From an uncultured Bacteroidales bacterium (lineage in GTDB: Bacteria; Bacteroidota; Bacteroidia; Bacteroidales; UBA4417), in the NCBI GenBank assembly GCA_903887815.1, contig CAISRK010000473.1, positions 1-48,859 of the forward strand: a stretch of DNA of 48,859 nucleotides, given 5' to 3'. Below the pieces are notes generated by a model. It saw only the letters and a list, made by a program, of their open reading frames with translations. It made no database searches and was not told where the DNA came from. Position numbers and translations under genes: made by a program. This document shows, piece after piece, positions 14,702-31,818 of this stretch (positions are counted from its first letter, which is position 1; each line of letters opens with the position of its first letter).

Positions 14702-14767
14702 TTTAATTGATTTAAGAATTTAAATTCTGTAATAAAATGATGACTTAGTTACAAGGGATTGTTGATG

Positions 14768-16098: not shown

Positions 16099-16119
16099 AG
16101 CTGTAGGATAAACAAGCGT

Positions 16120-17632: not shown

Positions 17633-17652
17633 AAGATATTATTTTATGATTA

Positions 17653-18273
17653 TTAACAACCTCCGCCCGATGATGCTCCTGCCGGCTTTTTGGTAACGGT
17701 AACGGCTTTTTTTGTACTTGTAGCTACTTCAGTTTTAGTTTCTGAATTTCCGAAAAAGTGCTGGCAGGCAGCCGAACGGAACTGGTAAAGATTTATTTCT
17801 TCAACCGAAGCCGTTTCCACCGGTTTCACGGCTTTTACAATAGTGCTGAACCAGGTATTTATTCCACCCTGCATCACGTAAATACGTTCCATACCCAGCC
17901 GTTTGCATAGAATCCATGCCTGGTCCGACGTAACATCGGAATTAGAATAAAAAACTTTATCCTTTGCTTTCTGGCCGATTATTTCCCTGGCCGGAGCCGA
18001 CAAAAGCGAATCAACCGGGATATTTATCGCTCCTGGTACCTCAAACGTATTGAATTGTTCTTTTGACCGGACATCAATCAGCAACAAAGCAGGATCCTGT
18101 TTTACAAGCCTGTCGGTTATATCGTCGGTTGAGAGGAATCGCGAAGGATCGTCGATAGCCGCCAGCAGCATTTCAGGCCTGAGTTGTTTGTCAGTATCCC
18201 TTTGAGGCATAAAAAGCATCCCGATTCCGAGAGCAATGATAATGCCGGTTAGTAACAGATATTTCTTATTCAT
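17653..18273 (-). CDS. Membrane-anchored rhodanese-homology protein lacking the active-site Cys, with C-terminal SGGGC tail
   Basis: N-terminal TM (LLLTGIIIALGIGMLF). Rhodanese motifs (LLIDVRSKEQFNTFEVPGAINIP ... IYVMQGGINTW). The catalytic-loop position is Ser (VFYSNSDVTS). The tail ...KKPAGASSGGGC-stop was verified in the DNA. Confidence 0.8.
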   Translation of the reverse strand: MNKKYLLLTGIIIALGIGMLFMPQRDTDKQLRPEMLLAAIDDPSRFLSTDDITDRLVKQDPALLLIDVRSKEQFNTFEVPGAINIPVDSLLSAPAREIIGQKAKDKVFYSNSDVTSDQAWILCKRLGMERIYVMQGGINTWFSTIVKAVKPVETASVEEINLYQFRSAACQHFFGNSETKTEVATSTKKAVTVTKKPAGASSGGGC

Positions 18274-18284
18274 AGGTCCCGGTG

Positions 18285-18878
18285 TTAATACTCAACTTTC
18301 TTAACTTTCTTTTCAACAAATGTTGCTCCGTAGAACATGCCGATGGCTGCCAGGATAAGCAGGAACCCGAAAACGGTTTCACGCATGCCAAGCAAATCGT
18401 AAATTTTTACACCACCCAGGTTACGGCTGTTATAAATGCCTTCGAATAAAGGATATAATTCGGAGAAAATAAATACGCCTATAAACAGGCCGGCACTGAA
18501 AAACATGGCATCGATTTTCCCAATGGCAACACCTGTAAAACTTGTACCCGGGCAAAATCCGCCTAACGCAAATCCAAAACCCATGATAATGCCGCCAATA
18601 ATAGCCGACATAACATAATACGGATTGATATACAGCATGGATGCATCCATCCATCCCATATAATCGAAATAAATTATACCGGTCATTGCTGTTATTGCCG
18701 CAGTAAAGAACACCCGCAAAACCACAAAATCGTAACCGAAAAAGGTACCCATAATTTTGCGCGACGAGGAAAACCCCGATGCTTCGAGTGAGAAACCAAA
18801 GCCAGCACCCAGCAACAATGCAATTACATTGTTCCAGGTTTCGGGTATAACGCCCATTGGAATAAGAGGTCCTACCAT
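18285..18878 (-). CDS. YeeE/YedE family sulfur-compound (thiosulfate-type) transporter, second half-protein
   Basis: 197 aa, polytopic. Conserved GGFCPGTS motif with Cys. Typical two-gene YeeE/YedE arrangement. Confidence 0.8.
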   Translation of the reverse strand: MVGPLIPMGVIPETWNNVIALLLGAGFGFSLEASGFSSSRKIMGTFFGYDFVVLRVFFTAAITAMTGIIYFDYMGWMDASMLYINPYYVMSAIIGGIIMGFGFALGGFCPGTSFTGVAIGKIDAMFFSAGLFIGVFIFSELYPLFEGIYNSRNLGGVKIYDLLGMRETVFGFLLILAAIGMFYGATFVEKKVKKVEY

Positions 18879-18934
18879 ATGTTTTTAGTATTAGATGTAG
18901 TTATGTTAAAAGTTTGTTTTGATTTAAGAATACC

Positions 18935-18995
18935 GATTAACGATTTTAGATTTGCGATTTTTCTGTTCTTTCTGATACTTCTAAAATCGTTAATC
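18935..18995 (-). promoter_or_regulatory. Perfect 15-bp inverted repeat (hairpin) in the spacer between the two YeeE/YedE genes
   Basis: gattaacgattttag (18935-18949) and ctaaaatcgttaatc (18981-18995) are exact reverse complements separated by 31 nt. The loop contains gatttgcgat, a 10-mer also present at 40070-40079. Confidence 0.6.
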
Positions 18996-19002
18996 CTTGT
19001 TC

Positions 19003-19530
19003 TTAAATCCATAGTTTCTTGAAAATCCAGGAAAACACATAAGCTGATCCGAAAATCGCCATCATGGTAATGATTCCCGAAGCCGAAAGTACAGCCATAC
19101 CGCTTAATGCAGCCCCGCTGGTGCAACCGCGTGCGAACTGCGAACCGACACCGAACAGGATACCTCCTATTATAGCCGCCACCAGCCGTTTCCGGCTGGT
19201 AATCTTGGGTGAATGTTCGGTTTTGAACTTCAATCGCCCGTAAAGAGTTCCTGAAAGGAATCCCCCGACAAGCACACCTATAACTTCGAAAACAAGCCAG
19301 TTATTCATCGGGCTGCCTTCGTCGCCCAGGAATTTGCTGTAATATTTGTTATTATCGGCATGAACAGGTGCTACTGCATGAACGGCAGTAACCACAGTGC
19401 TTTTTACAGCGCCGCTGGCACCTAGCCCGCGTCCGGTTATATAATAGGTACTGAAAAGTACCAGGCCCAGCAATACACCACCCAGGTATGGATTGATGTA
19501 AAAGGTACCGTCTCTTTTAAGCTTTTCCAT
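19003..19530 (-). CDS. YeeE/YedE family sulfur-compound transporter, first half-protein
   Basis: 175 aa, polytopic. Motifs ITGRGLGASGA and FARGCTSGAALSG with a conserved Cys. Confidence 0.8.
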   Translation of the reverse strand: MEKLKRDGTFYINPYLGGVLLGLVLFSTYYITGRGLGASGAVKSTVVTAVHAVAPVHADNNKYYSKFLGDEGSPMNNWLVFEVIGVLVGGFLSGTLYGRLKFKTEHSPKITSRKRLVAAIIGGILFGVGSQFARGCTSGAALSGMAVLSASGIITMMAIFGSAYVFSWIFKKLWI

Positions 19531-19625
19531 GATTAAAATATTTTGTTTTGAAAGTAATTTCTGTTTTTAATATTCGAAAGACAGAAGCCAGAATAATGAA
19601 GTCGGTGTCGGAAGTCAAATATGTT

Positions 19626-19689
19626 CCCTTGTCGCCTTGTCTCCATTTCGCCTTGTCGCCTTGTCCCCATTTAGCCTTGTCGCCTTATC
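19626..19689. repeat. 8 x 8-bp tandem array (GCCTTGTC-type)
   Basis: cccttgtc gccttgtc tccatttc gccttgtc gccttgtc cccattta gccttgtc gccttatc, read directly between psrC and yeeE. Confidence 0.85.
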
Positions 19690-19704
19690 ACCGAACCCAC
19701 CAAT

Positions 19705-19739
19705 CCCTAACCCCTAAAACCTAACCCTCAACCCCTAGT
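19705..19739. repeat. 5 x 7-bp CCCTAAN array (G-rich on the transcribed minus strand)
   Basis: ccctaac ccctaaa acctaac cctcaac ccctagt. It overlaps the psrC stop codon (19735-19737). Confidence 0.8.
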
Positions 19740-20676
19740 ACAAATACCGTGTTATCTGCCCAGCTTCCACCATGATGAACCTAAAAATAAGGCCTCCAAA
19801 AAGTATAAAAACAGCAGGAATTATGATTGGCATTTTGTAACCTATAAGCTCCAGTACCTCAAGTATAGCAGGGAAGATCAATCCCAGCAAAATCACAAAC
19901 ACAAAGAACGGAACGGTAAACTGCCCGCCAAGGAAAAGATTGGCTGCATTGATCTGCACCTCGGATCCTGCAAGGAAACCCATGATCATGTGGGTGATAA
20001 AAAACAGTTCGACTACGATAAAAAGGAGGTCGAGGCGGCTTATGATCCTCCGTTCCTCGTGGCTTTTACTCATAAGAATAATGCAGGCTGCCCCGGTCGA
20101 CATACCCGACACCAGGAACAACGGCCCGAGAATGGTTGTATTCCACAATGGACGTGCATTAAAGGCCGAAAGAAGTATACCTGTATAAATCCCGAGTATA
20201 ACGGCATAAATAGCCATAGGCCAGGCGATATACCAACGGTTTCTGATAACCCAGGCTTCGAATGTATACAGGAATTTGAATTTCCAGTCCCAGTTTGGGA
20301 ATACTTCCCTGATATAACTTGCCGACCAGATTATCGAAATCGGGGTCATGATCATTAAAACCCAGGCGCCCCAGCCCATAGGCGATTCGAGGCGGATGGT
20401 TGTGTACAACTGCCAGAAATACATCTTATGCTTCAGATCGAGGAAAAGCATAAACAAGCCTATTATAAGAGCAAACGGTACCAGGAAAGGCGCCCATTTC
20501 ACCGTAGCAGGCATTTCTTTTTCTTTTCCAAGGATGGTATAAACCCCGGCGAGGAAGAGTATTCCTGCGGCCAGTCCTCCAAGGAAAAGGTAAATAGGTA
20601 TCTGCCAGTGCCATATATGCAGGTAAGGGTCAATATTGGGAATATTGCGACCGCTTACAAATAATTCTTCTTTCAT
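19735..20676 (-). CDS. psrC: NrfD/PsrC-type polytopic quinol-interacting membrane anchor of the molybdoenzyme
   Basis: 313 aa with about 8 predicted TM helices, directly downstream of the 4Fe-4S subunit. Size and position match PsrC/PhsC (NrfD family). Confidence 0.8.
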   Translation of the reverse strand: MKEELFVSGRNIPNIDPYLHIWHWQIPIYLFLGGLAAGILFLAGVYTILGKEKEMPATVKWAPFLVPFALIIGLFMLFLDLKHKMYFWQLYTTIRLESPMGWGAWVLMIMTPISIIWSASYIREVFPNWDWKFKFLYTFEAWVIRNRWYIAWPMAIYAVILGIYTGILLSAFNARPLWNTTILGPLFLVSGMSTGAACIILMSKSHEERRIISRLDLLFIVVELFFITHMIMGFLAGSEVQINAANLFLGGQFTVPFFVFVILLGLIFPAILEVLELIGYKMPIIIPAVFILFGGLIFRFIMVEAGQITRYLY

Positions 20677-20700
20677 AGTTTTCTGTCTTTGCGCTAACGG

Positions 20701-21234
20701 TTATACTAAGTAGAAAATCTGTGGTTTTGTTCCGGCTTCGGGTGCAAGTGCCTTGAATTTCCTGTTTTTCAATACATTGACAATTTCCGAATTGGGATCT
20801 TCAAGGTCGCCGAAATACATGCAGCTGGTTGGGCAAACGCTGACACAGGCAGGTTTCTCGCCTTTGCGAACGCGATGGATACAGAAAGTACATTTATCAA
20901 CATACCCGTCAGGATGCGAATATCTGGCTTCATACGGGCAGGATTCGATGCAGGCGCCGCATCCGATACATTTGTTGTGAGTTACAAGTACAATTCCCCC
21001 ATCCTCAAAATGGCTTGCACCTGTCGGGCAGCAACGCACACAGGGTGAATTGTCGCAGTGGTTACACCGTTCCGACCGCAGTTCGATACTTACATTCGGA
21101 TAGGTTCCATCAACGGTTTCGCTAACCCAGTCGCGGCAGAAACCTATAGGGACATTGTTTTCGGTCTGGCAGGCGACCACGCAGTCGCTGCACCCCACAC
21201 ATTTGCGGGTATCTATAGCCATTGCATATCTCAT
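20701..21234 (-). CDS. psrB: 4x[4Fe-4S] ferredoxin-type electron-transfer subunit
   Basis: Four Cys clusters: CVGCSDCVVAC, CNHCDNSPCVRCCP, CIGCGACIESCP and CTFC...CVSVCP. The start overlaps the psrA stop (ATGA at 21231-21234). Confidence 0.9.
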   Translation of the reverse strand: MRYAMAIDTRKCVGCSDCVVACQTENNVPIGFCRDWVSETVDGTYPNVSIELRSERCNHCDNSPCVRCCPTGASHFEDGGIVLVTHNKCIGCGACIESCPYEARYSHPDGYVDKCTFCIHRVRKGEKPACVSVCPTSCMYFGDLEDPNSEIVNVLKNRKFKALAPEAGTKPQIFYLV

Positions 21235-23477
21235 GACTCGGTCTCCTTTCGCGGATCGTCCTTAATAAAAGTTATAAAATTGCCCCGCATACCGGTGCCA
21301 CCCATTATAGGGTCGATCATCACATTGGTAATCATCTCGGTATCATTTGCACCGCGGCCGTAAGCCAGGTGAAGCGGTTTATGGTGATGCCCGAATCCGT
21401 GAACGATATAAACCGAATCCCATCGGATCCGTTCGGTCAACCTTACTTTTACAGGGAATTTCGAAATTTCGCCATCCTGGTTCTTAAGCCAAACATACTG
21501 GTCCTTCTTAAATCCCCATATGCCGGCTACCTGCGGGTTAACCCAAACTGAATTTTCGGGCATCAGGGCAACCAGGTTGGGGTTGTTGGCGGTACGGCTA
21601 AAGGTATGCATAGGAGCCCGGCCGTATATGAGGCGGTAAAATCCTTCCTCCGGTTCAGGATGTTTTGTAAATAAAGGCATAGGGTCGAAACCGGCTGCGG
21701 CGAGTTCGTGCGAAAACAACTGAATCTTACCCGAGGCAGTCTTAAAAATATGAGGTGTTCCCGGTTCAATATAGGGTGAAGTTTTGCGTGCAATCTTTTT
21801 CACACCAATACGCTGCATTTCGGCAAGTGAGGATCCAACCTGTTTCAACTGCCAGTCAAGCACTTCTGTATACTCTTTATAATTGAAGAACGCAGCAAGG
21901 CCAAGTCGTTCACCAAGTTGTTTGGCTATCCACCAGGCTGGCTTGGTTTGGTTTTTAGGATCAACTGCCGGCATGCGAAGTCCCAAAGTTGGTTCGCGGT
22001 GCGCTGTAGTGCGGATGTCGTCGTATCGCTCAAGATATGTACATTCAGGAAGAACCACATCAGCATAGCCTGTAATCTCCATTGGCATTGTATCAACAAC
22101 AATCAGAAGATCAAGCGATTGCAGGGCTTTCTTAAACTGCTCTTTTAATGGAACCGTAGATACCAGGTTTGTACCAGCTACAACCCAGCCTTTAATTTTT
22201 GCTTCCTGTCCTCCCGCGGGACTTGAAGCTTCAATTACCAGGTTGGTTGGAGCTTCGTTGGCCAATGGATAATTTCCGTTCAACAGGTCTTTCCAGGTCC
22301 AGGCGGGTTTAGGATATTCGGGATGCGGGAATTCAGGTATTTTTATTCCTTCTTTAAAGAATATTCCACCCCTGTTCCCCCATGAACCCAGGAGTGCGTT
22401 CAGAATAGCAATTGCCCTTGTACGCTGGACGTCATCACCATACCAGGCTGTATGGCGGCCCGGATGAATTATAGTTGAAGGTGCAGCGTTTGCCATTTCA
22501 CGTGCAGTGCTGCGGATAAGATCAGGTTTTAAAGTGGTAATGCCATACGCCCATTCGGGGGTGAAGGAGACAACATGCGCTTTCAGTTCCTCGAGCCCTT
22601 CGGCATTGGCTGCAACATATTCTTTGTTGTACAAATCATCATAGATGAGTACATGTATCCAGGCAAGTAAAAGTGCTATATCTGTCGATGGTTTTATAGG
22701 CAGCCAGTATTTCGATTTTGAGGCGGCAGTCGAAAGACGGGGATCGACCGTAATGATAACGGCACCGTTGTCGATAGCCTGACTCATTTCCTGAACCTGC
22801 CCGTTATGCATGTTTTCACCTATATGGGAACCGATAAGGACAAGGCACCGGGTATCGCGTATGTCGGTAACTTCGGGACTGCTGACCGATTCCCCGAAAG
22901 TTGCTTCGAAGCCTACATCGCGGGCCCCGCGGCATTGTGCAAACGAAGGAGCAGCCATATTGCCCGTGCCGTAAGCTTTCATGAGATGTGTCAGGTAGTT
23001 GGCCGGGGATCCGTGCATGAACAGAGCCATGCTTTCGGGACCATACTTGGCTTTCATATCCGACATTTTTGTGGCTACAAAATCCAGGGCTTCGTCCCAG
23101 CTGGCTTCGCGGTAAGTTTGTTTTCCATCCTTAATCACCCGCAATAAGGGGGTTTTAAGCCGGTCGGGATCGTTATACATTCCAACACCACCGGTACCGC
23201 GCGGGCAGAGTTTGCCGTTGCACTGGGGATCGTCGTAATTCCCGGTGATTTTTTTAATATTCCCGTCTTCGGTAACATGAGCCCAACCGGCACATTTCCA
23301 GAAACACACCTCGCAATAGGTTGGGTAGCGGTGAAGCTTCTCCTTGCCTCCACCGGTCATCGCCAAAAGATCATCCAAAACAGTTGATCCAAAGGTATAA
23401 CGTGAGATCCCTGCACCCAGTGCCAGTGTTCCGGCTCCCAAAGCTGAAATTTTAATAAAATCTCTCCTTGTCTTCAT
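21231..23477 (-). CDS. psrA: Periplasmic Mo-bisPGD oxidoreductase catalytic subunit, polysulfide/thiosulfate reductase (PsrA/PhsA) type
   Basis: Tat signal MKTRRDFIKISALGAGTLALGAG. I placed the start at this Met (23477) rather than the ORF-track start at 23519. N-terminal FeS motif CEVCFWKCAGW...CPRG. About 748 aa, as for PsrA/PhsA. Followed by psrB and psrC. Confidence 0.85.
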   Translation of the reverse strand: MKTRRDFIKISALGAGTLALGAGISRYTFGSTVLDDLLAMTGGGKEKLHRYPTYCEVCFWKCAGWAHVTEDGNIKKITGNYDDPQCNGKLCPRGTGGVGMYNDPDRLKTPLLRVIKDGKQTYREASWDEALDFVATKMSDMKAKYGPESMALFMHGSPANYLTHLMKAYGTGNMAAPSFAQCRGARDVGFEATFGESVSSPEVTDIRDTRCLVLIGSHIGENMHNGQVQEMSQAIDNGAVIITVDPRLSTAASKSKYWLPIKPSTDIALLLAWIHVLIYDDLYNKEYVAANAEGLEELKAHVVSFTPEWAYGITTLKPDLIRSTAREMANAAPSTIIHPGRHTAWYGDDVQRTRAIAILNALLGSWGNRGGIFFKEGIKIPEFPHPEYPKPAWTWKDLLNGNYPLANEAPTNLVIEASSPAGGQEAKIKGWVVAGTNLVSTVPLKEQFKKALQSLDLLIVVDTMPMEITGYADVVLPECTYLERYDDIRTTAHREPTLGLRMPAVDPKNQTKPAWWIAKQLGERLGLAAFFNYKEYTEVLDWQLKQVGSSLAEMQRIGVKKIARKTSPYIEPGTPHIFKTASGKIQLFSHELAAAGFDPMPLFTKHPEPEEGFYRLIYGRAPMHTFSRTANNPNLVALMPENSVWVNPQVAGIWGFKKDQYVWLKNQDGEISKFPVKVRLTERIRWDSVYIVHGFGHHHKPLHLAYGRGANDTEMITNVMIDPIMGGTGMRGNFITFIKDDPRKETES

Positions 23478-23547
23478 GTAGCATTTTAATTTGGCAATCA
23501 AATACTTACTGATGCACATCAGCCTTTTCTGATTGTTTATTGAATAA

Positions 23548-23579
23548 CAAAAGTATGGTAATGCCTCATATGATTCAAA
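23548..23579 (-). promoter_or_regulatory. Candidate Bacteroidota sigma-A promoter for the psr operon
   Basis: On the minus strand TTTG (23579-23576), then 20 nt, then TActTTTG (23555-23548). This matches the -33 TTTG / -7 TAnnTTTG consensus and its spacing. Confidence 0.4.
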
Positions 23580-23788
23580 AAAAGCAATTCTTCCGAATTA
23601 CAACTCATATCTTTGATTATCTGCACATTACAATATAATCTATATCCATACAAATTAGCCTGAAATATTTATCTTCTCATTATCAACACTATACGTATTT
23701 ATTTAGAACATATATAAATTGCATGCCTTGTTGCTATAATCCTGATATACAGTATTTTAAACAATAATATAACTGCTCAAAATAAAAG

Positions 23789-23802
23789 TTGACACAGATC
23801 AT
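23789..23802 (+). promoter_or_regulatory. FNR/CRP-like box upstream of the Rieske gene
   Basis: TTGACacagATCAT compared with the consensus TTGAT-N4-ATCAA (2 mismatches), 41-54 nt upstream of the 23843 start codon. Confidence 0.35.
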
Positions 23803-23842
23803 AAAATAACATGATCCGGACCTGATTAACAGTAAAGAGGGA

Positions 23843-24304
23843 ATGTTTCATGGATTCAAAATCTTCATAGTTTTGACAATTGATAGTACCGCCTTGGAAC
23901 CTCAGAAATACATTAACAGGAAAACTTTTTTACGGCTGTCTGCAACTGCTTTGGCTGTTGCGTTTCTTGCATTATGGGACAGGCTTACCAACCGCCAGAA
24001 AGTACTGCTTGAAAGCCCGGTAATTACCAGGCTTAATACAGCTACACTCGGAACAGGCACCTATCTGTTCGAAAGGTTTATTGTTTATAAATCAGCCGAT
24101 TCCCTGAAAATCTTCTCAAATAAGTGTACCCATGCCGGCTGCCGGATAAACCAGGAACTGGAAGGACAACTTATCTGCCCCTGCCACGGTTCCCGGTACG
24201 AAGCTGCTACCGGGAAAGTCGTTCAGGGCCCTGCAGGGCTTGATCTGCCTTCGATTCTATTTACATCCGATACAAAAACCGGCGAAATCATTATAAGATT
24301 CTGA
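23843..24304 (+). CDS. Rieske [2Fe-2S] protein, bc-complex type
   Basis: Box I CTHAGC and box II CPCHGS, including the disulfide Cys pair typical of Rieske/cyt b complexes. N-terminal hydrophobic anchor (FLRLSATALAVAFLALW). The exact start is uncertain. Confidence 0.85.
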   Translation: MFHGFKIFIVLTIDSTALEPQKYINRKTFLRLSATALAVAFLALWDRLTNRQKVLLESPVITRLNTATLGTGTYLFERFIVYKSADSLKIFSNKCTHAGCRINQELEGQLICPCHGSRYEAATGKVVQGPAGLDLPSILFTSDTKTGEIIIRF

Positions 24305-24306
24305 AT

Positions 24307-27027
24307 TTGAAAATTCCGGAAACCATAAAAAAGCTAATAGCGTTCGACACGTATGGGTGGATTGCCACTGCATCCATAATACTGTGTGCCGTATCCGGAG
24401 TTTTACTCGTGGTGCCTTATGATGTGGCAAATCCTTACCTTTCGGTTACCCGGCTTGTAACTGCAAATCCGGCTGCCTCACTGGCAAGGAATATACACTA
24501 CTGGAGCGCACAGCTGTTTCTGATCCTGACACTTATACACATTTTCGACCATCTGAGGGGAAATACTGAAACCAACATCAAGAAGAAAAGTGTATGGTTA
24601 AGGCTGACACTTTCCATACTATTTTCTCTTTATGTTATGCTTTCGGGGTTTATACTGAAAGCCGACGGCGACAGCCAGCAGGCGCATCGCATACTTTCGT
24701 CGCTTATCAGCAGCCTGCCTTTGATAGGGACTTTGCTGAAGCAGACATTTATCGGCCCGGAAGGGAATTTCCAGGTTCTGTATATACAACACGCTTCCAC
24801 AGCCACCATTATACTTTTTATAGTAATCATGGAGCACGCACGGAGCCTGAAAGTGAATACGTCAACCCTGCTGATTACGGCTGTTATAATTGTCGTCTTC
24901 AGCTTTCTTTTCCGCGCACCCGTTAACGGGTTAAATGATGCCGTTATGAAAGGGCCCTGGTATTTTGTCGGGTTACAGGAAACGCTCCACTGGGTTTCGA
25001 ATCCGCTCATGGTTTCGGCTGGATTACTTATACTTCTTGCCTTGATATACCTTGTTCCATGGGTGAAACCAATTTATAGCAGGTTAATCAAACGGTTTTT
25101 TGTTGCAATGATCCTGCTTTACGTGATGCTAACCCTGGCAGGGTTTTTCTTCCGCGGGCCAATGTGGCAATGGCAATGGCCCTGGGAAAAGCAGTATAAG
25201 CCGCAGACCTTTTTGTACCCTGAGAAAATCAGCTTTTCAGCCGCTGATACAGCACAGCTTACTATAATACAGGGACATGCCGAGGGTTGTGTTTCGTGCC
25301 ATAAAGGAATGAGTGGCTTTTCGGATGCACACCAACCTGAATATATCGGCTGTTATTCATGCCATGGCGGCGATCCGCTTACGCTTAACAAAACCAAAGC
25401 ACATGCGAAAATGTTCGCATTTCCGGGCGACTTATCCAACGCTGCCGAAGCCTGCGGAAACCAGGGTTGCCATCCTTCAATAGTGAACCGTGTGGACAAA
25501 TCGCTTATGGCCACGCTGGGTGGCATAATAAGTGTCGATAAATGGGTTTTCGGTGAAACCTCCGACCTGAACAGCCGCGAGCATGTCGATGATATAGGGA
25601 GTACAGCAGCAGGAACCCATTTGCGGAATCTTTGTGCCGGCTGCCACCTTGGGAACGAGAAAACTAAAACCGGCCCCGCTGCCTGGCTTGAGAGGGGTGG
25701 CGGATGCCTGGCCTGTCATCTCACTTATGATAAAAAAGCGTTAAGTACTTTGCAGCAAATGAAGAAACGACAGGCAGGCGATACTTCGCTTCCCATGTTC
25801 CACCCGGCACTGGACCTGAATATTACAAACGATAAATGCAAAAGCTGCCACAGCCGTTCAGGTCGCATATCGATGAACTATGAAGGATGGAACGAAACCG
25901 GGTTAAAACCTGAGGATGTTAAAGGAAAGCAGAACTACCAGGTTTTGCCCGATAAACGTGTATTTGCAAAAATGCCCGATGATATCCACCATCAGAAAGG
26001 AATGCTGTGTATCGACTGCCATGGCTCCTTAGAACTTATGGGCGATAGAAAACTTTATTCACACAAGGAAGATGCTGTAAAAATACAATGCAGCGACTGC
26101 CATACGAGAAAGGTTAACAACCAGATTTACCTGGTATCGGCCGATCGTGAAACCCAGCTTATTTCGTGGTCGCGGAAATACAAAGCCGAGGGAGTACAGG
26201 TATTAGCCACACAAAAGGGGCTTTTCCCTCTTGTTAATACTATAGTTGAAGAACAAGGTTCCCGTTTAAGCCTGATTACAAAATCCGGTTCAGGTATTAT
26301 TGTAATGAAACCGCCTGCAAGAGCCTGTACCGAAGGCAAAGCCCACGAAAGGCTGAGCTGCGATGCATGCCATACATCATGGGCACCGCAATGCATTGGC
26401 TGCCACAACAGCTATGAAAGCCAGACTGCAGGATTCGATATGCTGCAAAACAAAATCCGAAAAGGCACCTGGATTGAATATGCCACCGAAGGCGTGGCTG
26501 ATTTACCCGTACTGGGGATTAATGCAACGGATAAAACAAAGAAAAACGGCCAGGTTGGCACTTTTACCCCTGGAATGATTCTGACTATTGAAAAAGGATC
26601 TTTTACCAAAGGAGAAAAAACGGTCTTTCACCGTCTGTATGCCCCTTCGTCGGCACATACAACTCAACGGAAAGGAAGGAGTTGCAAATCGTGCCACAAC
26701 GAACCGCTGGCAATAGGCTACGGAAGAGGAAAACTGGTGCTTTCAAAAGAAGGCCGCTGGACATTCGAACCTTTATTCGAAAACAACAGGTGCGATGGAT
26801 TGCCCGAAGATGCCTGGACCGGTTTCCTGAAGGAACGGAACGATCAGGCGGCAACGCGCATAGGGATGAGGCCGTTTAACCTGTCCGAACAAAAGAAAAT
26901 TCTTACCGCAGGAGCCTGCCTTACCTGCCATAAAGAAGATTCAAAGGTGATGAAAGAAGGCCTGCAGAATTTCGAGGCAGTTTCCGGGAATATGAGAGCG
27001 GTGTGCGTAAAACCAAGGTTTGATTAA
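24307..27027 (+). CDS. Cytochrome b6 + subunit-IV-like membrane domain fused to a periplasmic multihaem (about 12 haem) c-type cytochrome
   Basis: TTG start 2 nt after the Rieske stop. 7 predicted TM helices. R61xxH64-x13-H78 in helix B and H162-x14-H177 in helix D. PWYF (217-220) sits at the PEWY position. Residues 328-885 carry 11 CxxCH motifs (CVSCH, CYSCH, CAGCH, CLACH, CKSCH, CIDCH, CSDCH, CDACH, CIGCH, CKSCH, CLTCH) plus CGNQGCH (Cx4CH). Confidence 0.85.
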   Translation: MKIPETIKKLIAFDTYGWIATASIILCAVSGVLLVVPYDVANPYLSVTRLVTANPAASLARNIHYWSAQLFLILTLIHIFDHLRGNTETNIKKKSVWLRLTLSILFSLYVMLSGFILKADGDSQQAHRILSSLISSLPLIGTLLKQTFIGPEGNFQVLYIQHASTATIILFIVIMEHARSLKVNTSTLLITAVIIVVFSFLFRAPVNGLNDAVMKGPWYFVGLQETLHWVSNPLMVSAGLLILLALIYLVPWVKPIYSRLIKRFFVAMILLYVMLTLAGFFFRGPMWQWQWPWEKQYKPQTFLYPEKISFSAADTAQLTIIQGHAEGCVSCHKGMSGFSDAHQPEYIGCYSCHGGDPLTLNKTKAHAKMFAFPGDLSNAAEACGNQGCHPSIVNRVDKSLMATLGGIISVDKWVFGETSDLNSREHVDDIGSTAAGTHLRNLCAGCHLGNEKTKTGPAAWLERGGGCLACHLTYDKKALSTLQQMKKRQAGDTSLPMFHPALDLNITNDKCKSCHSRSGRISMNYEGWNETGLKPEDVKGKQNYQVLPDKRVFAKMPDDIHHQKGMLCIDCHGSLELMGDRKLYSHKEDAVKIQCSDCHTRKVNNQIYLVSADRETQLISWSRKYKAEGVQVLATQKGLFPLVNTIVEEQGSRLSLITKSGSGIIVMKPPARACTEGKAHERLSCDACHTSWAPQCIGCHNSYESQTAGFDMLQNKIRKGTWIEYATEGVADLPVLGINATDKTKKNGQVGTFTPGMILTIEKGSFTKGEKTVFHRLYAPSSAHTTQRKGRSCKSCHNEPLAIGYGRGKLVLSKEGRWTFEPLFENNRCDGLPEDAWTGFLKERNDQAATRIGMRPFNLSEQKKILTAGACLTCHKEDSKVMKEGLQNFEAVSGNMRAVCVKPRFD

Positions 27028-27204: not shown

Positions 27205-28260
27205 CTAAATGTATTTTTTCGATTTTTGGTTACCCTGGGCATCGTAATTAACTTGTACTGTCTTCCGTTCGCCGGTAAATGTTCCGACTTCCTCTTTGAT
27301 GGTGGTAGAAGGTCGCGGACCTTTCCCTACATCAGAAGCCATTCCCGACATTACTGCAAGGATAATTGCGCCAACCACAACTATGAATGAGGTAGCAAGC
27401 GTTGTCCAGAAAATGCAAAATGCCGGTATCAGAAGAATCAGGCTGCGCACTATACCGGCTTTTGTCCCGAATTCAATAATGCTCCGGTATACAGCCCAGC
27501 CATAAAATCCAAGGAAAAATACCTGCAGCGACCAGTAAAACTTTACAACAAACACGGATTCGGACGGGTACATAAAAACAGGCAGATGCATGACGAAATC
27601 TTTAAACCTGAGGTCGTAAAATAAGATGGTGAGACCTGCCAGAGCACCGAAAACTGCCGAAGCAACAAGGAAAGCAACCCCCGCCTTATTAATTTTAGGC
27701 CTTTTACCCGACCATTTATAAAATATCCTGTCGATCATGCCTGAGAATATAAGGAAGAGAGCTGAGATCAGCAGTGTAACTCCCAAAACGATCCAAAACT
27801 CTTTATGCGTAAACCGGATCATTGAATCGAGTGCACGTTTTATGCGTCCGTTCCAGGGGCTTGTCCCTTCCTTATAGCAATATTTCGGAAGAGTAACCAG
27901 GTTTAAAACATAGGCCAGACTGCTGTCGGGCAGGCGGACAAGCGCTATCTTCTTGCCGGCAAGCGTTTGAATTTCAATCACTTTGAAGCTGTCGCCCGAT
28001 TTAAGAGTATCCGTCTTCCAATCAAAGAACTCTTTAGTTGCAAGGTCAGTTTTATCAGGATATACGACAAACTGTTTGGCATCCACGATGAAAACATCAC
28101 CTGCCGAAGCATTCAGCAACGAAATGCTATCAGAATACGCAGTATTTTTATCCGGTGTACTGTCAACCGGGGTTTTTGATTTACCGGCGTAGCTCACATA
28201 ATGTAGCAATAGCAAAGAGGCAAATAGAGTGGTAAGCAGTTTTGTGCCTTTGAGTTCCAT
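27205..28260 (-). CDS. Hypothetical membrane protein (signal peptide, ~140-aa extracytoplasmic domain, ~5 TM helices)
   Basis: 351-aa ORF. N-terminal signal (LLTTLFASLLLLHYVSYA) and several long hydrophobic segments in the C-terminal half. No motif recognised. Confidence 0.6.
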   Translation of the reverse strand: MELKGTKLLTTLFASLLLLHYVSYAGKSKTPVDSTPDKNTAYSDSISLLNASAGDVFIVDAKQFVVYPDKTDLATKEFFDWKTDTLKSGDSFKVIEIQTLAGKKIALVRLPDSSLAYVLNLVTLPKYCYKEGTSPWNGRIKRALDSMIRFTHKEFWIVLGVTLLISALFLIFSGMIDRIFYKWSGKRPKINKAGVAFLVASAVFGALAGLTILFYDLRFKDFVMHLPVFMYPSESVFVVKFYWSLQVFFLGFYGWAVYRSIIEFGTKAGIVRSLILLIPAFCIFWTTLATSFIVVVGAIILAVMSGMASDVGKGPRPSTTIKEEVGTFTGERKTVQVNYDAQGNQKSKKYI

Positions 28261-28357
28261 AAATTTTTTTAGGTTAGATACCGGTTTTTTCGGAAAATCA
28301 ATTCATTAATTATGTGGCATTACCTTTTCAGCGAATAGTTGCTCTTTTTTGGCAATG

Positions 28358-29005
28358 CTAATTCCAGCCTTTCGCCTTTTTATAGTCATCATTGCTTTTA
28401 AACAGTATTTTCTTCATTTCGGCATTAGCCTTATTGATGGATATAACACCTGAAACCTTTTGTGTTTCACCGGCTTTCATTTCTTTGCTTACTGCCAGCA
28501 CAAACCAGTGATCATAGGCATGGTCTTTTATTACCTGGTTATTTTCGTTCAGCATGAGTGCGGGGACCGATAACTGCACATTCTGCCCGCCCATGGTTTT
28601 CTCCGAATCAGCTTTCAGTTCAATGGTAGCTTCGAGGGTAGCCCTGTCCCAGTCGAGGGCTGTAATTTTTACATCTTTAACCACATACGCAGTATTCCCT
28701 GTTGAATCAACAAACGGTATTGTAATAGGCAAGCCCATTTTGGCGGCTTCGGCTTTAAATTCAGCCTTTGAATCTTCTTCCAGCTTTGTAAGTTTTGATT
28801 GTGCAGCCACAAGGTCGTCGACTGATTTCGCTTCAGTTTTAGCTTTGGCCGTAAATGAAGAATCTTCATCATGATACGCTTGTTTTATGGAAACCAGCTT
28901 GCCAAAATAGCCTTTGCTTTCCAGATCTTTTTTGGAAGTGCCGCTTCCGCATGAGGCTAAGAATACGATCATAGCCAGGCTAACAAGATTAAATAGGATT
29001 TTCAT
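28358..29005 (-). CDS. Hypothetical lipoprotein
   Basis: I moved the start to the internal ATG at 29005, giving MKILFNLVSLAMIVFLASCGS (signal + lipobox). The ORF-track start at 29044 is a TTG. Confidence 0.6.
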   Translation of the reverse strand: MKILFNLVSLAMIVFLASCGSGTSKKDLESKGYFGKLVSIKQAYHDEDSSFTAKAKTEAKSVDDLVAAQSKLTKLEEDSKAEFKAEAAKMGLPITIPFVDSTGNTAYVVKDVKITALDWDRATLEATIELKADSEKTMGGQNVQLSVPALMLNENNQVIKDHAYDHWFVLAVSKEMKAGETQKVSGVISINKANAEMKKILFKSNDDYKKAKGWN

Positions 29006-29151
29006 ACTGTTATGATTTTTTGTTATACATAAATGTTTCGGCAAATCTATGCCTGTAAAGCAGGGTAATGCAAATAGTTCCGGTGCTGATTTATGAATCA
29101 GTACAAGGTGGAAAGCGACTAAGAAGGATGGTGATTGAAAATGAAAACTAT

Positions 29152-31113
29152 TTATTGAATACCAGCTCTTTGCTGATCAATAAATTCACTCGGGGTAATT
29201 CCTTTTATTTTTTTAAAGGCAGCATTAAAGGCACTTTTGGAGTTAAATCCAACTGACTGGGCAATACCTTCAATGCTCAAATACTGTTGTTTCTGGTTAA
29301 CAAGCTGGCTACAGGCTTCTTCGATCCTGAATTGATTTAAGAACAAATTGAAATTCTGCCCTGTAAGTTCATTTATCACTTTCGAAAGATAAGAGGTATT
29401 GGTTTCGAGCAGTTCGGCAAGGTCGTGCAGGCTCAGGTCGGAGCGGAGGAAATATTTTTCGTCCTGCATTTTCTGTTGAAGCCGCAGCCAGATATTTTGC
29501 TGCATTTCTTCGCTGATAATTAGCTTCGGCGATTTATCGGCAATACCATTGCGTCCCAAATGGCTCTTTGCTTCATTATCCGAAAGCGGGCTATAAGCCG
29601 GGGCAGCCCGTTTCCTGCCAAATACTTTTGTGGAAACACCAAGCAGAATCAGTATTCCAAGGATTGTGAGGATAAGAGTGAAATATCGAATGTAGCCGGG
29701 GCCCGATTTTTCCTTTTCTTTAACCGCCAGATCGATAAGCTGGTCGGAGTTAAGTTCGCTGAGAAGTTCCTGCTGCCGGAGCGGCACAACAGCATTTCGC
29801 ACCGAATCGCCTGCTTCGACATATTTACGGAAATACGCCAGGGCCATACTTTCATCTCCTGTAAGATGGAAAAGATCAGCCATGGATTTTAGGTTGTCAA
29901 GAAAGAAAACATTATTACCGGTTTCGCGCGATAGTTTAAGGCTTGTATTAAAACTGGCCAGTGCATCGGTGAAATCTTTATCCAATACCTGGAACCGGGC
30001 TTTTGAGTTATAAAAAACGATGGCCGAAAGCGGATCGCCTGCGCGGTGCATGTATTTTTCCGCTTCTGTAAGCGACACCAGGATAGGTTCGTACTTTTTC
30101 ATGGTCATGTAAACATCGGCTATGTTGCATGCCGCGAAACAAGCGCCCTGCCAATCCAGGGTCATGGTATCCGACTGTATCGTTCTGGTGAACCACGATA
30201 AGGCTTCATTGTATTTTTTCTGCTCTATACTGTACATCCCCAGCATATTCTGGGCATAGCCCAATCCTTTTTTGTCCTTCAATTTAGTAAATATAGCAAC
30301 GGATTTTTCGAGTGTAAGAAGGGTAAGGTCCTTGGGCGAACTCCCTTTATATACGCCGGATATATTGCAATAAAGGTATCCGAGAAACATGCTGTCGCTG
30401 TATTTCTCGCAGAGCCGGGTAGCCTTAACGAGTACTTTCTGCGCAAGATCATTCATTCCTGCATCGTTGTAAAGCAAACCCACTGAAATTAAAGACCGTC
30501 CGCTGGTAGCTTTATCATTGCAGAGGAGAAATTCTTTCTCAGCCAACCTAAGGTATTCGACAAACTCTTTGAGTTCTCCTTTTTTTTGTGAAATCCTGGC
30601 AAGAAGCACATAGGTTTTAGCAAGTACAAGCCCATCGTTGCACGACTGCGATGATTTTACCGCAACCAGGCAAATTGCATTTGCCCTAGCAAAGTCGTTA
30701 ACGGCAAAAAAATATTTAGCCTGTGCCAGGTAAAAATCGGGATCGAATTGTTGTTGCCCGGTTTGAGCATAGGCTTTTTCGGCATAAGCGAGGACTTTTG
30801 CTATCGAATCGTTCGGTAAACCATTTTGCAGCAAAAGAGTTGCCTTATTTGTATAAGCCCTTGCAATCCAGAGGTGGTCATTTATTTTAGTTGCCTCTTC
30901 CAGGGCTGTATGATTCAGCGACATGGCTTTGGCAACCGAATCGGTATACAGCAATGAAAGTTTCAACAATAAATCCACTTTCGTGCTTCCCGAAGCCGTT
31001 GCGAGTTGCTGCTGAAGCGATGATTTCTGATTCCGGAAATTAATCCCGGCCGCACAGTCAGCCGAAAATGAAACGAAAAATGCTAAAAAAAACAATATGA
31101 AATATTTCAACAT
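29152..31113 (-). CDS. TPR-repeat, membrane-spanning AraC-family transcriptional regulator
   Basis: Signal/TM at the N-terminus, a long TPR-like helical region, one TM (YFTLILTILGILILLGV), and a C-terminal HTH_AraC (LSLHDLAELLETNTSYLSKVINELTG...IAQSVGFNSKSAFNAAFKKIKGITPSEF). Confidence 0.8.
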   Translation of the reverse strand: MLKYFILFFLAFFVSFSADCAAGINFRNQKSSLQQQLATASGSTKVDLLLKLSLLYTDSVAKAMSLNHTALEEATKINDHLWIARAYTNKATLLLQNGLPNDSIAKVLAYAEKAYAQTGQQQFDPDFYLAQAKYFFAVNDFARANAICLVAVKSSQSCNDGLVLAKTYVLLARISQKKGELKEFVEYLRLAEKEFLLCNDKATSGRSLISVGLLYNDAGMNDLAQKVLVKATRLCEKYSDSMFLGYLYCNISGVYKGSSPKDLTLLTLEKSVAIFTKLKDKKGLGYAQNMLGMYSIEQKKYNEALSWFTRTIQSDTMTLDWQGACFAACNIADVYMTMKKYEPILVSLTEAEKYMHRAGDPLSAIVFYNSKARFQVLDKDFTDALASFNTSLKLSRETGNNVFFLDNLKSMADLFHLTGDESMALAYFRKYVEAGDSVRNAVVPLRQQELLSELNSDQLIDLAVKEKEKSGPGYIRYFTLILTILGILILLGVSTKVFGRKRAAPAYSPLSDNEAKSHLGRNGIADKSPKLIISEEMQQNIWLRLQQKMQDEKYFLRSDLSLHDLAELLETNTSYLSKVINELTGQNFNLFLNQFRIEEACSQLVNQKQQYLSIEGIAQSVGFNSKSAFNAAFKKIKGITPSEFIDQQRAGIQ

Positions 31114-31230: not shown

Positions 31231-31818
31231 TCATGCCTGGTTCATCATAACCTCGGCATTACACAGATCCTGCTTCGAATTTACATTATAAAATAACCTG
31301 TCGGTATAAAAATCTAAAATTTTATCAATAACCAGTTTGTTGATACTGATTTCCCCGAAAAGATCCGGCAATTTGTAATTTCCCGTTTGTATAAACGTAC
31401 TCATTTTAGCGAGGACTGATGCCGCGTAATACCCGCAGAGCGGCTCATAATGCCGGTTGCCTTCCCAGGGAACCGCAACCTGGTAACCCGCTGCATTTTC
31501 AAGGATAAACTTTATTAAACCATTCGAAACAAAGGGCAAATCGCACGAAAGTACAAGGTTCATTTCGGTATCACTTTTGCGCAAAGCGGAATAAATACCA
31601 CCCATCGGACCAATACCGGGAAACTCATCGGGTACCACCCTGAATCCAAAGGATTGGTAGGATTCGGATGACGAACTGATTATAATGTTTGAACAAATCC
31701 CTGACAGCAATTCAATAGCATAATTTATAAGCGGCTTACCACAAAGCAGCTGCAAGCCTTTCTCGGTTCCCATACGGGTGCTTTTTCCGCCTGCCAGAAT
31801 AATTCCGGTTACTTCCAT
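31231..31818 (-). CDS. mobA: Molybdenum cofactor guanylyltransferase
   Basis: GIILAGGKSTRMGTEKGL, GKPL, GPMGGIYSAL and SCDLPF motifs. 195 aa. Confidence 0.85.
   Translation of the reverse strand: MEVTGIILAGGKSTRMGTEKGLQLLCGKPLINYAIELLSGICSNIIISSSSESYQSFGFRVVPDEFPGIGPMGGIYSALRKSDTEMNLVLSCDLPFVSNGLIKFILENAAGYQVAVPWEGNRHYEPLCGYYAASVLAKMSTFIQTGNYKLPDLFGEISINKLVIDKILDFYTDRLFYNVNSKQDLCNAEVMMNQA

Follow-up and report, generated by a model that had tools for sequence, protein, structure and literature searches.

The window, that is, the whole stretch of 48,859 nucleotides analysed here, carries on its forward strand a two-gene operon that encodes a Rieske protein and a 906-aa polypeptide (24307..27027, TTG start) in which a cytochrome b is fused to a multihaem cytochrome c. 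Its Bacteroidota origin, proposed in an earlier note made from the letters alone, is supported by the T9SS and SusC/D genes in the window and by the 88% identity of the fused ORF to a homologue from a Bacteroidales MAG. The elements of the operon and its upstream region are as follows.

23520..23842 (no strand): AT-rich divergent intergenic region, from psrA to the Rieske gene
23843..24304 (+): Rieske 2Fe-2S subunit, 153 aa; Tat-like NRKTFLRL motif and TM anchor, then CTHAGC...CPCHGSRY
24307..24849 (+): cytochrome b6-like part, residues 1-181, helices A-D; haem-b ligands H64/H78 and H162/H177
24850..25176 (+): subunit-IV-like part, residues 182-290, helices E-G
25177..25281 (+): linker, residues 291-325, with a conserved WQWPW motif
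25282..27027 (+): ExtM-type 12-haem cytochrome c domain, residues 326-906, with 11 CxxCH motifs and one Cx4CH

The Rieske protein and the fused cytochrome

The TGA of the Rieske gene ends at 24304 and the TTG of the fused ORF is at 24307, leaving a gap of 2 nt. The Rieske protein matches the corresponding Pfam profile (E 2.2e-11) and contains both cluster boxes, CTHAGC and CPCHGS, with both disulfide cysteines; its best PDB matches are b6f-type Rieske proteins (5cxm_A, 1.6e-11). The Tat-like RK/RR motif and the TM anchor are kept in 18 orthologues, and a second candidate start, TTG at 23873, would yield a protein of 143 aa, the length seen in the closest relative. The protein also carries a Ser/Tyr pair (CPCHGSRY). 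Such pairs are associated with potentials above +200 mV (PMC12954380), so the cluster is predicted to be of high potential and to suit high-potential acceptors. A Rieske cluster of this kind would be poorly matched to polysulfide (about -260 mV), an observation that speaks against a part in sulfur reduction.

Pfam Cytochrome_B (PF00033) matches residues 10-151 of the fused ORF (E 1.6e-9), and the best PDB sequence matches are cyanobacterial cytochromes b6. H64 and H78 align to His86 and His100 of b6, and R61, H64, H78, H162, and H177 are invariant in an alignment of 57 homologues. An AF2 model (pLDDT 80) contains helices A-G together with the cd and ef surface helices, and its top 50 Foldseek matches are all cytochromes b of bc1 complexes (310-358 columns, probability 1.00). 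By this model and the alignment, the cytochrome b part has the fold of the Rieske/cytochrome b (bc1/b6f) superfamily and the four histidine ligands of the b haems. With seven TM helices, the topology sets the haem-c domain outside the membrane, in the periplasm.

The helix-D histidines are spaced by 14 residues (H162-x14-H177), which the earlier note called the b6/Firmicute type. The spacing stands, but the helix-A cysteine that binds haem ci is absent from the fused ORF: in the alignment, the position of b6 Cys35 is occupied by a nearly invariant Thr15, and an invariant Cys27 lies 12 residues further on. The canonical Qo motif PEWY/PDWY is also absent. In its place is GPWY, with Pro for the acidic second residue, within an invariant Qo-type motif K215-G-P-W218-Y-F (24952..24963); Q224, E225, and H228 of the subunit-IV-like part are invariant as well. 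GPW[YF] is found in nearly all of the 150 cluster representatives that cover the Qo region.

In the haem domain, CxxCH motifs start at residues 328, 349, 443, 467, 511, 568, 595, 685, 696, 793, and 871, and the single Cx4CH, CGNQGCH, at residue 383; about 0.03 CxxCH would be expected in the fused ORF by chance, as estimated from composition. All 12 motifs are invariant across the 57 homologues. The NCBIfam model for ExtM, the 12-haem cytochrome of the Geobacter ext cluster, matches the domain over profile positions 13-584 of 599 (E 5e-73) with 246 bits, which falls below the equivalog cut-off of 800. These scores indicate that the domain is an end-to-end homologue of ExtM and not its orthologue. 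ExtM and ExtP give the top NCBIfam scores for the fused ORF; ExtP leads among the cytochrome b models, with 46.5 bits against 37.2 for b6, and stays far below its cut-off of 290. NF040968 (416 positions), which bears the name ExtO, hit the haem domain rather than the Rieske protein.

What the earlier note observed in the operon was accurate throughout: the 153-aa bc-type Rieske protein with both boxes behind a membrane anchor, the TTG-initiated 906-aa ORF 2 nt downstream, its seven TM helices with the ligands of two b haems, the 11 CxxCH plus one Cx4CH in residues 328-885, and the periplasmic haem-c domain deduced from the odd number of helices all agree with the profiles, alignments, and model given above. 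The Pfam cytochrome b search that it proposed returned PF00033, and the four histidines are invariant.

Distribution of the fusion and its sulfur-gene neighbourhood

A search with the fused ORF returned 1062 matches, and most of the best 120 have lengths near 900 aa. More than 100 full-length fused homologues, at 48-88% identity, are spread over Bacteroidota, Ignavibacteria, and Calditrichia, with anaerobic Bacteroidales, Lentimicrobiaceae, and Prolixibacteraceae as carriers besides the latter two; among the top 150 clusters at 50% identity, 27 are fused. An assembly, frameshift, or gene-calling artefact, which the earlier note had named as a possible refutation, is rejected as extremely improbable: nothing was found in its favour, full-length homologues near 900 aa have been recovered in numerous separate assemblies from different sources, and the junction and linker motif are conserved. 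The fusion of cytochrome b to the 12-haem domain is thus genuine and widespread. Besides the fused form, there exist a split three-gene form and a stand-alone form; the latter is a TM-anchored ExtM-like protein without cytochrome b, found in Flavobacteriaceae.

The neighbouring genes of the window, all on the reverse strand, are as follows.

16994..18273 (-): two membrane-anchored rhodanese-fold proteins without the catalytic Cys, each with a Lys-rich tail ending in GGC-COOH
18285..19530 (-): two YeeE/YedE-type half transporters (Sulf_transp)
19735..20676 (-): NrfD-type membrane subunit (psrC), by profile matches
20701..21234 (-): 4Fe-4S subunit (psrB), by profile matches
21231..23519 (-): psrA/phsA-like Tat-exported molybdoenzyme, by profile matches, in a conserved neighbourhood
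31231..31818 (-): MobA-like molybdenum-cofactor guanylyltransferase; most relatives keep it in synteny with the cytochrome operon
36069..36923 (-): secreted tandem rhodanese
36942..38114 (-): Porin_O_P outer-membrane porin
38130..39143 (-): rhodanese lipoprotein

The molybdoenzyme scores as a full-length PhsA/PsrA-type catalytic subunit. The last three genes form a rhodanese-porin set that is a distant counterpart of Geobacter ExtH/ExtI: the ExtH model scores 47.7 bits in this set (cut-off 200), and the ExtI model, the only NCBIfam match of the porin, scores 36.6 bits (cut-off 150). The trio is present in relatives as well, often nearby.

The cluster of psr, YeeE, and rhodanese genes lies within 10 kb of the operon in 15 of 22 fused loci, divergent from it in most of them; in loci L033 and L035 the two are co-linear and share a strand, and in L034 the cluster is adjoined by DsrC and DsrE-like genes. 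In seven close relatives, among them the closest of all (88% identity), the Rieske/cytochrome operon is retained but has no psr genes within 10 kb, which counts against a sulfur-reducing role. In the split form (26-33% identity), the gene order is Rieske, cytochrome b, ExtM-like cytochrome, molybdenum enzyme, FeS subunit, b-type anchor, YeeE, YeeE, rhodanese, and in Flavobacteriaceae the stand-alone protein adjoins the cluster in all 11 loci. Fused, split, and stand-alone forms all recur beside a Psr/Phs molybdoenzyme, YeeE halves, and GGC-tailed rhodanese proteins. The divergent psrABC, rhodanese, and YeeE genes had been noticed before; psrABC, two YeeE halves, and two rhodanese genes were confirmed, and the proposed link to sulfur genes, for which a survey of relatives had been suggested, proved to be conserved across rearrangements and families.

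Possible role in sulfur reduction and alternatives

We infer the direction of electron flow and the partner of the complex as follows. The operon probably encodes a menaquinol-oxidising GPWY Rieske/cytochrome b module with a 12-haem wire that serves periplasmic sulfur (or selenium) reduction. In this minimal complex, cytochrome b, the subunit-IV part, and the ExtM-type 12-haem cytochrome c are one polypeptide. Menaquinol would be oxidised at the Qo-like site, with the first electron passing to the Rieske cluster and then to the covalently tethered 12-haem chain, and the second passing via the two b haems. The haem chain could then exchange electrons with the adjacent machinery of periplasmic sulfur (polysulfide, thiosulfate, or selenite) reduction, its most likely contact being the iron-sulfur/molybdenum subunits of Psr or carrier-bound sulfur. 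Such a role would be the one for which the homologous Cbc6/Ext module is placed with respect to MccSep in Geobacter. A point against this reading is that PsrC, being of the NrfD type, should already provide Psr with a connection to quinone, leaving no obvious need for another quinol module.

More tentatively, and with doubt prevailing, the combination of Rieske protein, GPWY cytochrome b, and ExtM-type cytochrome could be a phylum-spanning device for electron delivery to S0/polysulfide (or selenite) respiration, serving two unrelated reductases together with a new class of sulfur carriers. The reductases may be MccSep in Desulfobacterota and the Psr/Phs molybdoenzyme in Bacteroidota, and the carriers may be the catalytically dead rhodanese folds with a single Cys on the Lys-rich GGC tail. 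Should the high potential predicted for the Rieske protein prove real, quinol oxidation by the complex would have 'unusual energetics' in a menaquinone organism, as in anammox bacteria.

Alternatively, the Psr/Phs-like enzyme and the carriers could oxidise reduced sulfur and feed menaquinone, with the Rieske/b-12-haem pair acting as complex III toward a high-potential terminal enzyme (oxidase, nitrite reductase, or N2O reductase); PsrB would, in Flavobacteriaceae, pass its electrons straight to the stand-alone cytochrome. The high potential predicted for the Ser/Tyr Rieske protein fits this wiring, as do the stand-alone forms in the largely aerobic Flavobacteriaceae, the DsrC/DsrE-like genes beside one cluster, and the carrier-like GGC tails, which we take to be reminiscent of SoxY. 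We consider it unlikely, for several reasons. Those Psr/Phs/Srr relatives that have been characterised work as reductases, and the counterpart cluster of Geobacter serves S0 reduction (PMC13510729). The fused form is carried mostly by MAGs of anaerobic Bacteroidales or Lentimicrobiaceae, and none of the loci examined has a gene for a terminal oxidase or reductase linked to the operon.

The 12-haem domain might itself be the terminal enzyme, with an unusually ligated haem reducing polysulfide, selenite, or another periplasmic substrate in parallel with Psr. Its conserved possible distal ligands comprise only 8 non-motif His and 3-4 Met for 12 haems, plus two non-motif cysteines, C674 and C900, which do not vary across 59 sequences of the fused and stand-alone forms; His/Cys ligation of haem is a mark of the sulfur-active cytochromes TsdA, SoxAX, and MccSep (PMC13510729), and the stand-alone form persists without cytochrome b. 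Yet 8 His and 4 Met could ligate all 12 haems, the cysteines may simply form a disulfide, and ExtM in Geobacter is paired with a separate reductase. No solved structural relative of the domain was found, nor any similarity to a catalytic multihaem fold, and we give this enzymatic role a rather small chance.

Smaller still is the chance that the complex is a quinol oxidase for extracellular electron transfer (Fe(III), humics, electrodes), with the haem domain as a periplasmic wire. The Ext/Cbc clusters were first discussed for metal reduction, ExtM and ExtN being more abundant on Fe(III) (PMC5877670), and a b-c fusion in a quinol oxidase has a precedent in CbcL. On the other side, the fused ORF is the only ORF with haem motifs in the window, no outer-membrane porin-cytochrome conduit was found at any locus examined, and the genes conserved nearby relate to sulfur.

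In Bacteroidota, the quinol-to-cytochrome step is generally ascribed to alternative complex III; the Rieske/cytochrome b enzyme described here is widespread in anaerobic Bacteroidales and the other carriers. For structural studies, the fused form with its two genes offers an appealing minimal target. The homology to Cbc6/Ext further provides a concrete hypothesis for the physiological role of Cbc6, unknown according to a 2026 review (PMC13591261), and for the electron donor of ExtKL (MccSep), the polysulfide reductase that is essential for S0 respiration and has an 'unidentified electron donor' (PMC13510729). The recurrence of the sulfur neighbourhood across the fused, split, and stand-alone forms supports this hypothesis, which is open to genetics since cultured carriers exist (Maribellus mangrovi and Draconibacterium with the fused form, Lutibacter and Mariniflexile with the stand-alone form).

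Comparison with known systems

The earlier note regarded the Cbc-type oxidoreductases of Geobacter as lacking a Rieske protein, but Cbc6/ExtMNOPQS contains the Rieske protein ExtO, the cytochrome b ExtP, and the 12-haem ExtM (PMC2825233, PMC5877670, bioRxiv 10.1101/2021.04.15.440034). Like the window, this system (GSU2930-2935, within extHIJKLMNOPQS) combines a small Rieske protein, a cytochrome b, and a 12-haem cytochrome, and the ext cluster also has rhodanese and porin genes (PMC5877670, PMC2825233), the latter encoding a phosphate-porin-like outer-membrane protein nearby, as well as a polysulfide-type reductase alongside. In Geobacter, however, the genes are separate, with cytochrome b split into ExtP/ExtQ, whereas b and c are fused in the window; the additional cytochromes ExtN and ExtS have no counterpart in the window, the adjacent reductase is the pentahaem selenoprotein MccSep rather than a molybdoenzyme, and none of the window scores for ExtM, ExtP, ExtH, and ExtI reaches its curated cut-off.

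By its Qo motif, the cytochrome b part is assigned to the GPWY clade described by Kao & Hunte 2014, which includes an Ignavibacterium album cytochrome b fused to a trihaem c7 domain (PMC4122944). The clade shares with the window the GPWY/GPWF motif, the occurrence in the FCB group and Deltaproteobacteria, and, in I. album, a multihaem c domain C-terminal to cytochrome b; the fused partner in the window is instead the ExtM-type 12-haem domain of about 580 residues. The PWYF noted earlier in place of PEWY is the signature of this published clade. Given this clade with its c7 fusion and the ExtM homology, the Rieske/906-aa pair is a fused variant of a known family and not an unprecedented architecture: the description of an atypical Rieske/cytochrome b complex with a 12-haem fusion stands, but not its framing against prior knowledge.

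The b6c complex (QcrABC) of Bacillus and other Firmicutes resembles the window in the 14-residue spacing of the helix-D histidines, in a c-type domain fused C-terminally behind helix G and lying outside the membrane, and in its menaquinol-using host. In Bacillus QcrABC, the b6 chain is distinct from subunit IV, which carries a fused monohaem cytochrome c; the Qo motif reads PDWY, and a helix-A Cys binds haem ci, as opposed to the 12 haems, GPWY, and Thr of the window. CbcL (Cbc1) of Geobacter, also a quinol oxidase, likewise joins dihaem b and periplasmic multihaem c in one chain. Published descriptions assign its b domain to another dihaem-b family, and it is not known to have a Rieske partner; the window differs from this description by its PF00033 Cytochrome_B match and the Rieske gene directly upstream, and Ni_hydr_CYTB (PF01292) is not among the Pfam matches of the fused ORF.

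The anammox complexes (Kuste4569-4574, Kustd1480-1485) are similar in combining a Rieske/cytochrome b core with multihaem cytochromes in a menaquinone organism, and their Rieske proteins, which measure +303 and +335 mV (PMC12954380), are likewise of the Ser(/Tyr) type. They differ in that their multihaem subunits are separate and in having an HAO-like octahaem protein as well as NAD(P)-linked subunits; the window has none of these. Finally, Qrc and alternative complex III, which are built from multihaem c, molybdopterin-family, FeS, and NrfD subunits, have the same four-part parts list as the TM-anchored ExtM-like cytochrome with PsrABC in Flavobacteriaceae, whereas the molybdoenzyme of the window stands apart from these complexes as a full-length, Tat-exported catalytic subunit of the PhsA/PsrA type.

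Architecture of the Rieske and fused cytochrome proteins

By its sequence, the gene pair is a fused two-gene variant of the Rieske/cytochrome b module of the GPWY-clade, Cbc6/Ext type. This variant is widespread in the FCB group, and no published description of it was found in the literature searched. The earlier note identified the proteins and their link to sulfur genes correctly and overstated their novelty. The genes considered are the following.

23843..24304 (+): Rieske protein, 153 aa
24307..27027 (+): TTG-initiated 906-aa protein, cytochrome b (residues 1-290) plus a 12-haem cytochrome c domain
16994..23519 (-): sulfur cluster with psrA, psrB, psrC, two YeeE genes and two rhodanese genes
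16994..17632 and 17653..18273 (-): the two rhodanese genes, Rhd1 and Rhd2, encoding membrane-anchored rhodanese-fold proteins without the catalytic Cys ([YF][SA]N or Y[GSA] in its place)
36069..39143 (-): secreted tandem rhodanese, Porin_O_P outer-membrane porin and rhodanese lipoprotein, 9 kb downstream

The ORF list and motif scan reproduce exactly the two-ORF layout and haem-motif set proposed from the sequence alone, with a gap of 2 bases between the genes (...TTC TGA at TTG AAA...). The 153-aa protein matches the Pfam Rieske profile (2.2e-11) and scores best against b6f/bc1 Rieske subunits in both NCBIfam and PDB. In 18 orthologues from related loci the boxes CTHAGC and CPCHGSRY are kept, and ahead of a hydrophobic anchor the N-terminus contains a Tat-like motif, which reads NRKTFLRL in close relatives and RRxFL in more distant sequences. 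Since the start in the closest relative (L011, 88% identity) is the equivalent of TTG 23873, the true length of the window protein may be 143 aa.

Residues 10-151 of the fused ORF match Pfam Cytochrome_B (1.6e-9). A PDB sequence search with the cytochrome b part yielded only cyanobacterial and plant cytochrome b6, ARNIH64YWSA being aligned with RSIH86RWSA and LIH78IF with ILH100VF. In the conservation alignment (57 homologues, 48-88% identity), R61, H64, H78, H162, H177, G31, K215-G216-P217-W218, and H228 are invariant in 57/57. The AlphaFold2 model (mean pLDDT 80.2) contains helices 16-35, 55-84, 94-116, 156-178, 185-201, 233-252, and 255-282, as well as short cd and ef helices, and its 50 best Foldseek matches in PDB are all bc1-complex cytochrome b (310-358 aligned columns). 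Thus residues 1-290 correspond to cytochrome b6 and subunit IV in a single chain, and the seven transmembrane helices place the C-terminus and the haem-c domain on the outer side, as the earlier note had deduced from an odd helix count. Its domain assignments likewise held against Pfam, where the Cytochrome_B and Rieske profiles match, and against the structure model, which has the cytochrome b fold. Haem ci was rejected, as Thr15 occupies the position of b6 Cys35. Cys27 (24385..24387), in helix A four residues before Gly31, is also invariant in the 57 homologues and is not the haem-ci site.

The haem domain has CxxCH motifs at residues 328, 349, 443, 467, 511, 568, 595, 685, 696, 793, and 871, and CGNQGCH at 383. 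This third motif is a plain CxxCH in Flavobacteriaceae homologues, so the Cx4CH of the window represents a two-residue insertion within a normal haem site. Foldseek of the domain model (pLDDT 81) against PDB found no relative (best E 0.96), and by sequence the only PDB matches were marginal ones to NrfA motifs; the fold is therefore not assignable from these searches.

Residues 319-883 score best with the NCBIfam model ExtM (E 5e-73, profile 13-584/599, 246 bits against a cut-off of 800), and ExtP is the top cytochrome b model for the ORF (46.5 bits); homology to Ext is drawn from these NCBIfam profiles. The Geobacter cluster GSU2930-2937 encodes ExtM as its 12-haem cytochrome, together with the Rieske protein ExtO, cytochrome b ExtP, membrane protein ExtQ, and 10-haem ExtN (PMC2825233, PMC5877670), and is alternatively named Cbc6/cbcMNOPQR (bioRxiv 10.1101/2021.04.15.440034). 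The presence of ExtO means that the earlier description of Geobacter Cbc complexes as lacking a Rieske protein is mistaken in the case of the closest relative. The Cbc clusters go unmentioned in the G. metallireducens genome paper, and the physiological roles of Cbc3 to Cbc6 are still unknown according to a 2026 review (PMC13591261). The NCBIfam model NF040968 ("FeS_ExtO ... iron-sulfur cluster-binding subunit", 416 positions) does not match the window Rieske protein; it matched the multihaem domain with the coordinates and score of ExtN, which may reflect a misassigned model or model name.

Fused, split and stand-alone forms

A homologue search with the fused protein gave 1062 proteins. Most of the best 120, which stem from NCBI, JGI, ENA, and Logan assemblies, have lengths near 900 aa. 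Recurrence across these sources rejects an assembly artefact, and the fusion noticed earlier is genuine. With the cytochrome b domain alone, only 422 proteins (E<=1e-3) were found among 1.84 billion cluster representatives, so canonical cytochrome b is too remote for detection by that search, and the family is small and distinct. The best 150 of the 422 include 27 fused proteins (at least 800 aa, 10-12 haem motifs) and about 66 haem-less proteins of 270-400 aa spanning the seven helices; nearly all those covering the region carry GPW[YF]. The "GPWY clade" of cytochrome b was defined by Kao & Hunte in Deltaproteobacteria, Ignavibacteria, and Nitrospinae, and in its Ignavibacterium album member the cytochrome b carries a fused trihaem c7 domain (PMC4122944).

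The fused form occurs in Bacteroidales and Lentimicrobiaceae MAGs, Maribellus mangrovi, Draconibacterium, a Calditrichia MAG, and an Ignavibacteria MAG. One subclade has an insertion of 1.7-3.3 kb between the Rieske and fused genes (L014 6714..10000, L039 7537..10000, L040 8263..10000). The L039 and L040 inserts encode thioredoxin, OsmC, and a Zn-ribbon IS1595-like ORF, and the L014 insert contains homologous-looking small ORFs plus a masked N run.

Split loci were obtained with a distant unfused cytochrome b (P0240), for which a homologue search gave three proteins only. In two of these loci (L036 and L037) the cytochrome b (295 aa) shares 33% identity with the window domain, and the separate cytochrome of 603 aa aligns at full length with 26% identity (E 1e-55). 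The gene order there is Rieske, cytochrome b, ExtM-like protein, Tat molybdoenzyme (43% identity with PsrA), FeS subunit, Ni_hydr_CYTB-type anchor, YeeE, YeeE, rhodanese. The third locus, L038, encodes Rieske, cytochrome b, ExtM-like, and 10-haem ExtN-like proteins, which is the Geobacter arrangement. Finally, a stand-alone form with one N-terminal transmembrane helix and 12 CxxCH (624-633 aa) was found in the Flavobacteriaceae Lutibacter, Mariniflexile, Gaetbulibacter, and Gillisia, at loci where Rieske and cytochrome b genes are absent.

Sulfur genes and other neighbours

Gene neighbourhoods were surveyed in 32 genome loci by tblastn of window proteins and in nine more from gene calls. The psrA-psrB-psrC(NrfD)-YeeE-YeeE-rhodanese-rhodanese cluster lies at most 10 kb from the fused gene in 15 of the 22 loci with enough flank, mostly divergent from it as in the window; in L033 and L035 it immediately precedes the Rieske gene on the same strand, in co-linear order. 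The other seven, including the closest relative, have sugar-utilisation genes in its place; thus at the fused-gene site the linkage is frequent, not obligatory. The stand-alone gene is divergent from a psr-YeeE-rhodanese operon in 11/11 Flavobacteriaceae loci. The sulfur link suggested earlier therefore recurs beside the fused, split (L036/L037), and stand-alone forms. MobA is syntenic in most loci. In a sigma-70 promoter/terminator scan, promoter-like sites were less frequent than in shuffled sequence; the model behind the scan does not cover Bacteroidota promoters.

Both Rhd1 and Rhd2 end in a Lys-rich linker followed by GGC-COOH. The missing catalytic Cys and the GGC tail are common to all complete orthologues found (21 Rhd1 and 19 Rhd2, L004-L041), a range that extends from Bacteroidales to Flavobacteriaceae. 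Most Rhd2 orthologues have no Cys other than the C-terminal one, and the distant L036 rhodanese ends in ...EEEEGC. Judged from these termini, the tail looks like an undescribed sulfur-carrier tail, comparable to SoxY GGCGG.

In L002 and L041 the rhodanese-porin trio adjoins the cytochrome gene, in L012 and L039 it lies in the vicinity, and in Flavobacteriaceae it belongs to the psr operon. The sole NCBIfam match of the porin is ExtI, and the tandem rhodanese matches ExtH, both below threshold. A Crp/Fnr regulator (39366..40058, +) stands beside the trio. In L034, DsrC and DsrE-like genes and TatC (1523..2369) adjoin the psr-YeeE-rhodanese cluster; L039 and L041 have TauE-family genes after the cytochrome gene.

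Directly downstream of the cytochrome gene (27205..31113, -) are a 351-aa membrane protein and a 228-aa lipoprotein, both without family match, and a TPR-AraC regulator, a set conserved in L011 and L020 only. A 581-aa protein (33309..35054, -) combines a polytopic membrane N-terminal half with an NTPase_1 C-terminal half, and its gene is overlapped by a DUF364/DUF4213 "heavy-metal chelation" gene (35044..35853, -). In L014, L039, and L040 the NTPase_1 gene comes right after the fused gene, and in L011 it is syntenic; it possibly functions in cofactor maturation. Between a PKD/T9SS protein and the sulfur cluster, 12644..16476 (-) encodes a T6SS Tle1-like phospholipase (346 aa, E 1.5e-85) and then five small ORFs without family match; none of the related loci searched gave a match to them.

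Possible roles and comparison with Geobacter

In Rieske/cytochrome b complexes, quinol is oxidised at an outer-side site, one electron passing through the Rieske cluster to c-type haems and the other to the two b haems. We established here the protein parts, cofactor ligands, topology, and conserved gene partnership of such a system, in which the tethered 12-haem chain would link quinol oxidation to the neighbouring periplasmic sulfur system.

Oxidative wiring, with sulfur oxidation feeding menaquinone and the Rieske/cytochrome b complex acting as complex III, is a serious rival, because PsrC should by itself connect Psr to menaquinol and the window Rieske protein has both potential-raising residues, Ser and Tyr. 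Anammox Rieske proteins with this pattern have potentials of +303 and +335 mV (PMC12954380), and such a protein suits high-potential acceptors over polysulfide. Another rival is that the haem domain is itself catalytic: besides the 12 motifs, a set of 59 ExtM-like sequences, fused and stand-alone, shares eight conserved His and three to four conserved Met as well as C674 (26326..26328, 100%) and C900 (27004..27006, 98%), two cysteines that could form a disulfide or, as known from sulfur-active cytochromes, provide a His/Cys haem ligand. A role in extracellular electron transfer is less probable, as the window contains no further multihaem ORF and no locus has an outer-membrane cytochrome conduit.

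For quinol oxidation linked to periplasmic sulfur reduction, the Geobacter cluster provides an informative parallel. The genes directly upstream of extM encode ExtKL (MccSep), a periplasmic enzyme that reduces polysulfide as well as selenite; S0 respiration requires it, and its electron donor is unidentified (PMC13510729). Srr, which reduces selenite in Bacillus selenitireducens, is likewise a Psr-like enzyme flanked by rhodanese proteins (PMC12481199), so selenium is a possible substrate here too. We infer that the module probably serves S0, polysulfide, thiosulfate, or selenite respiration, and take the parallel between two reductases as the best evidence. This offers a testable role for the uncharacterised Geobacter complex and might supply the electron donor that is missing in sulfur respiration; the fused pair is a minimal system for structural work. 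The polysulfide-type reductases themselves are unrelated, a haem/selenocysteine enzyme in Geobacter and a molybdoenzyme in the window, whereas a homologous Rieske/cytochrome b/ExtM module, with rhodaneses and a related porin, stands beside the reductase in both.
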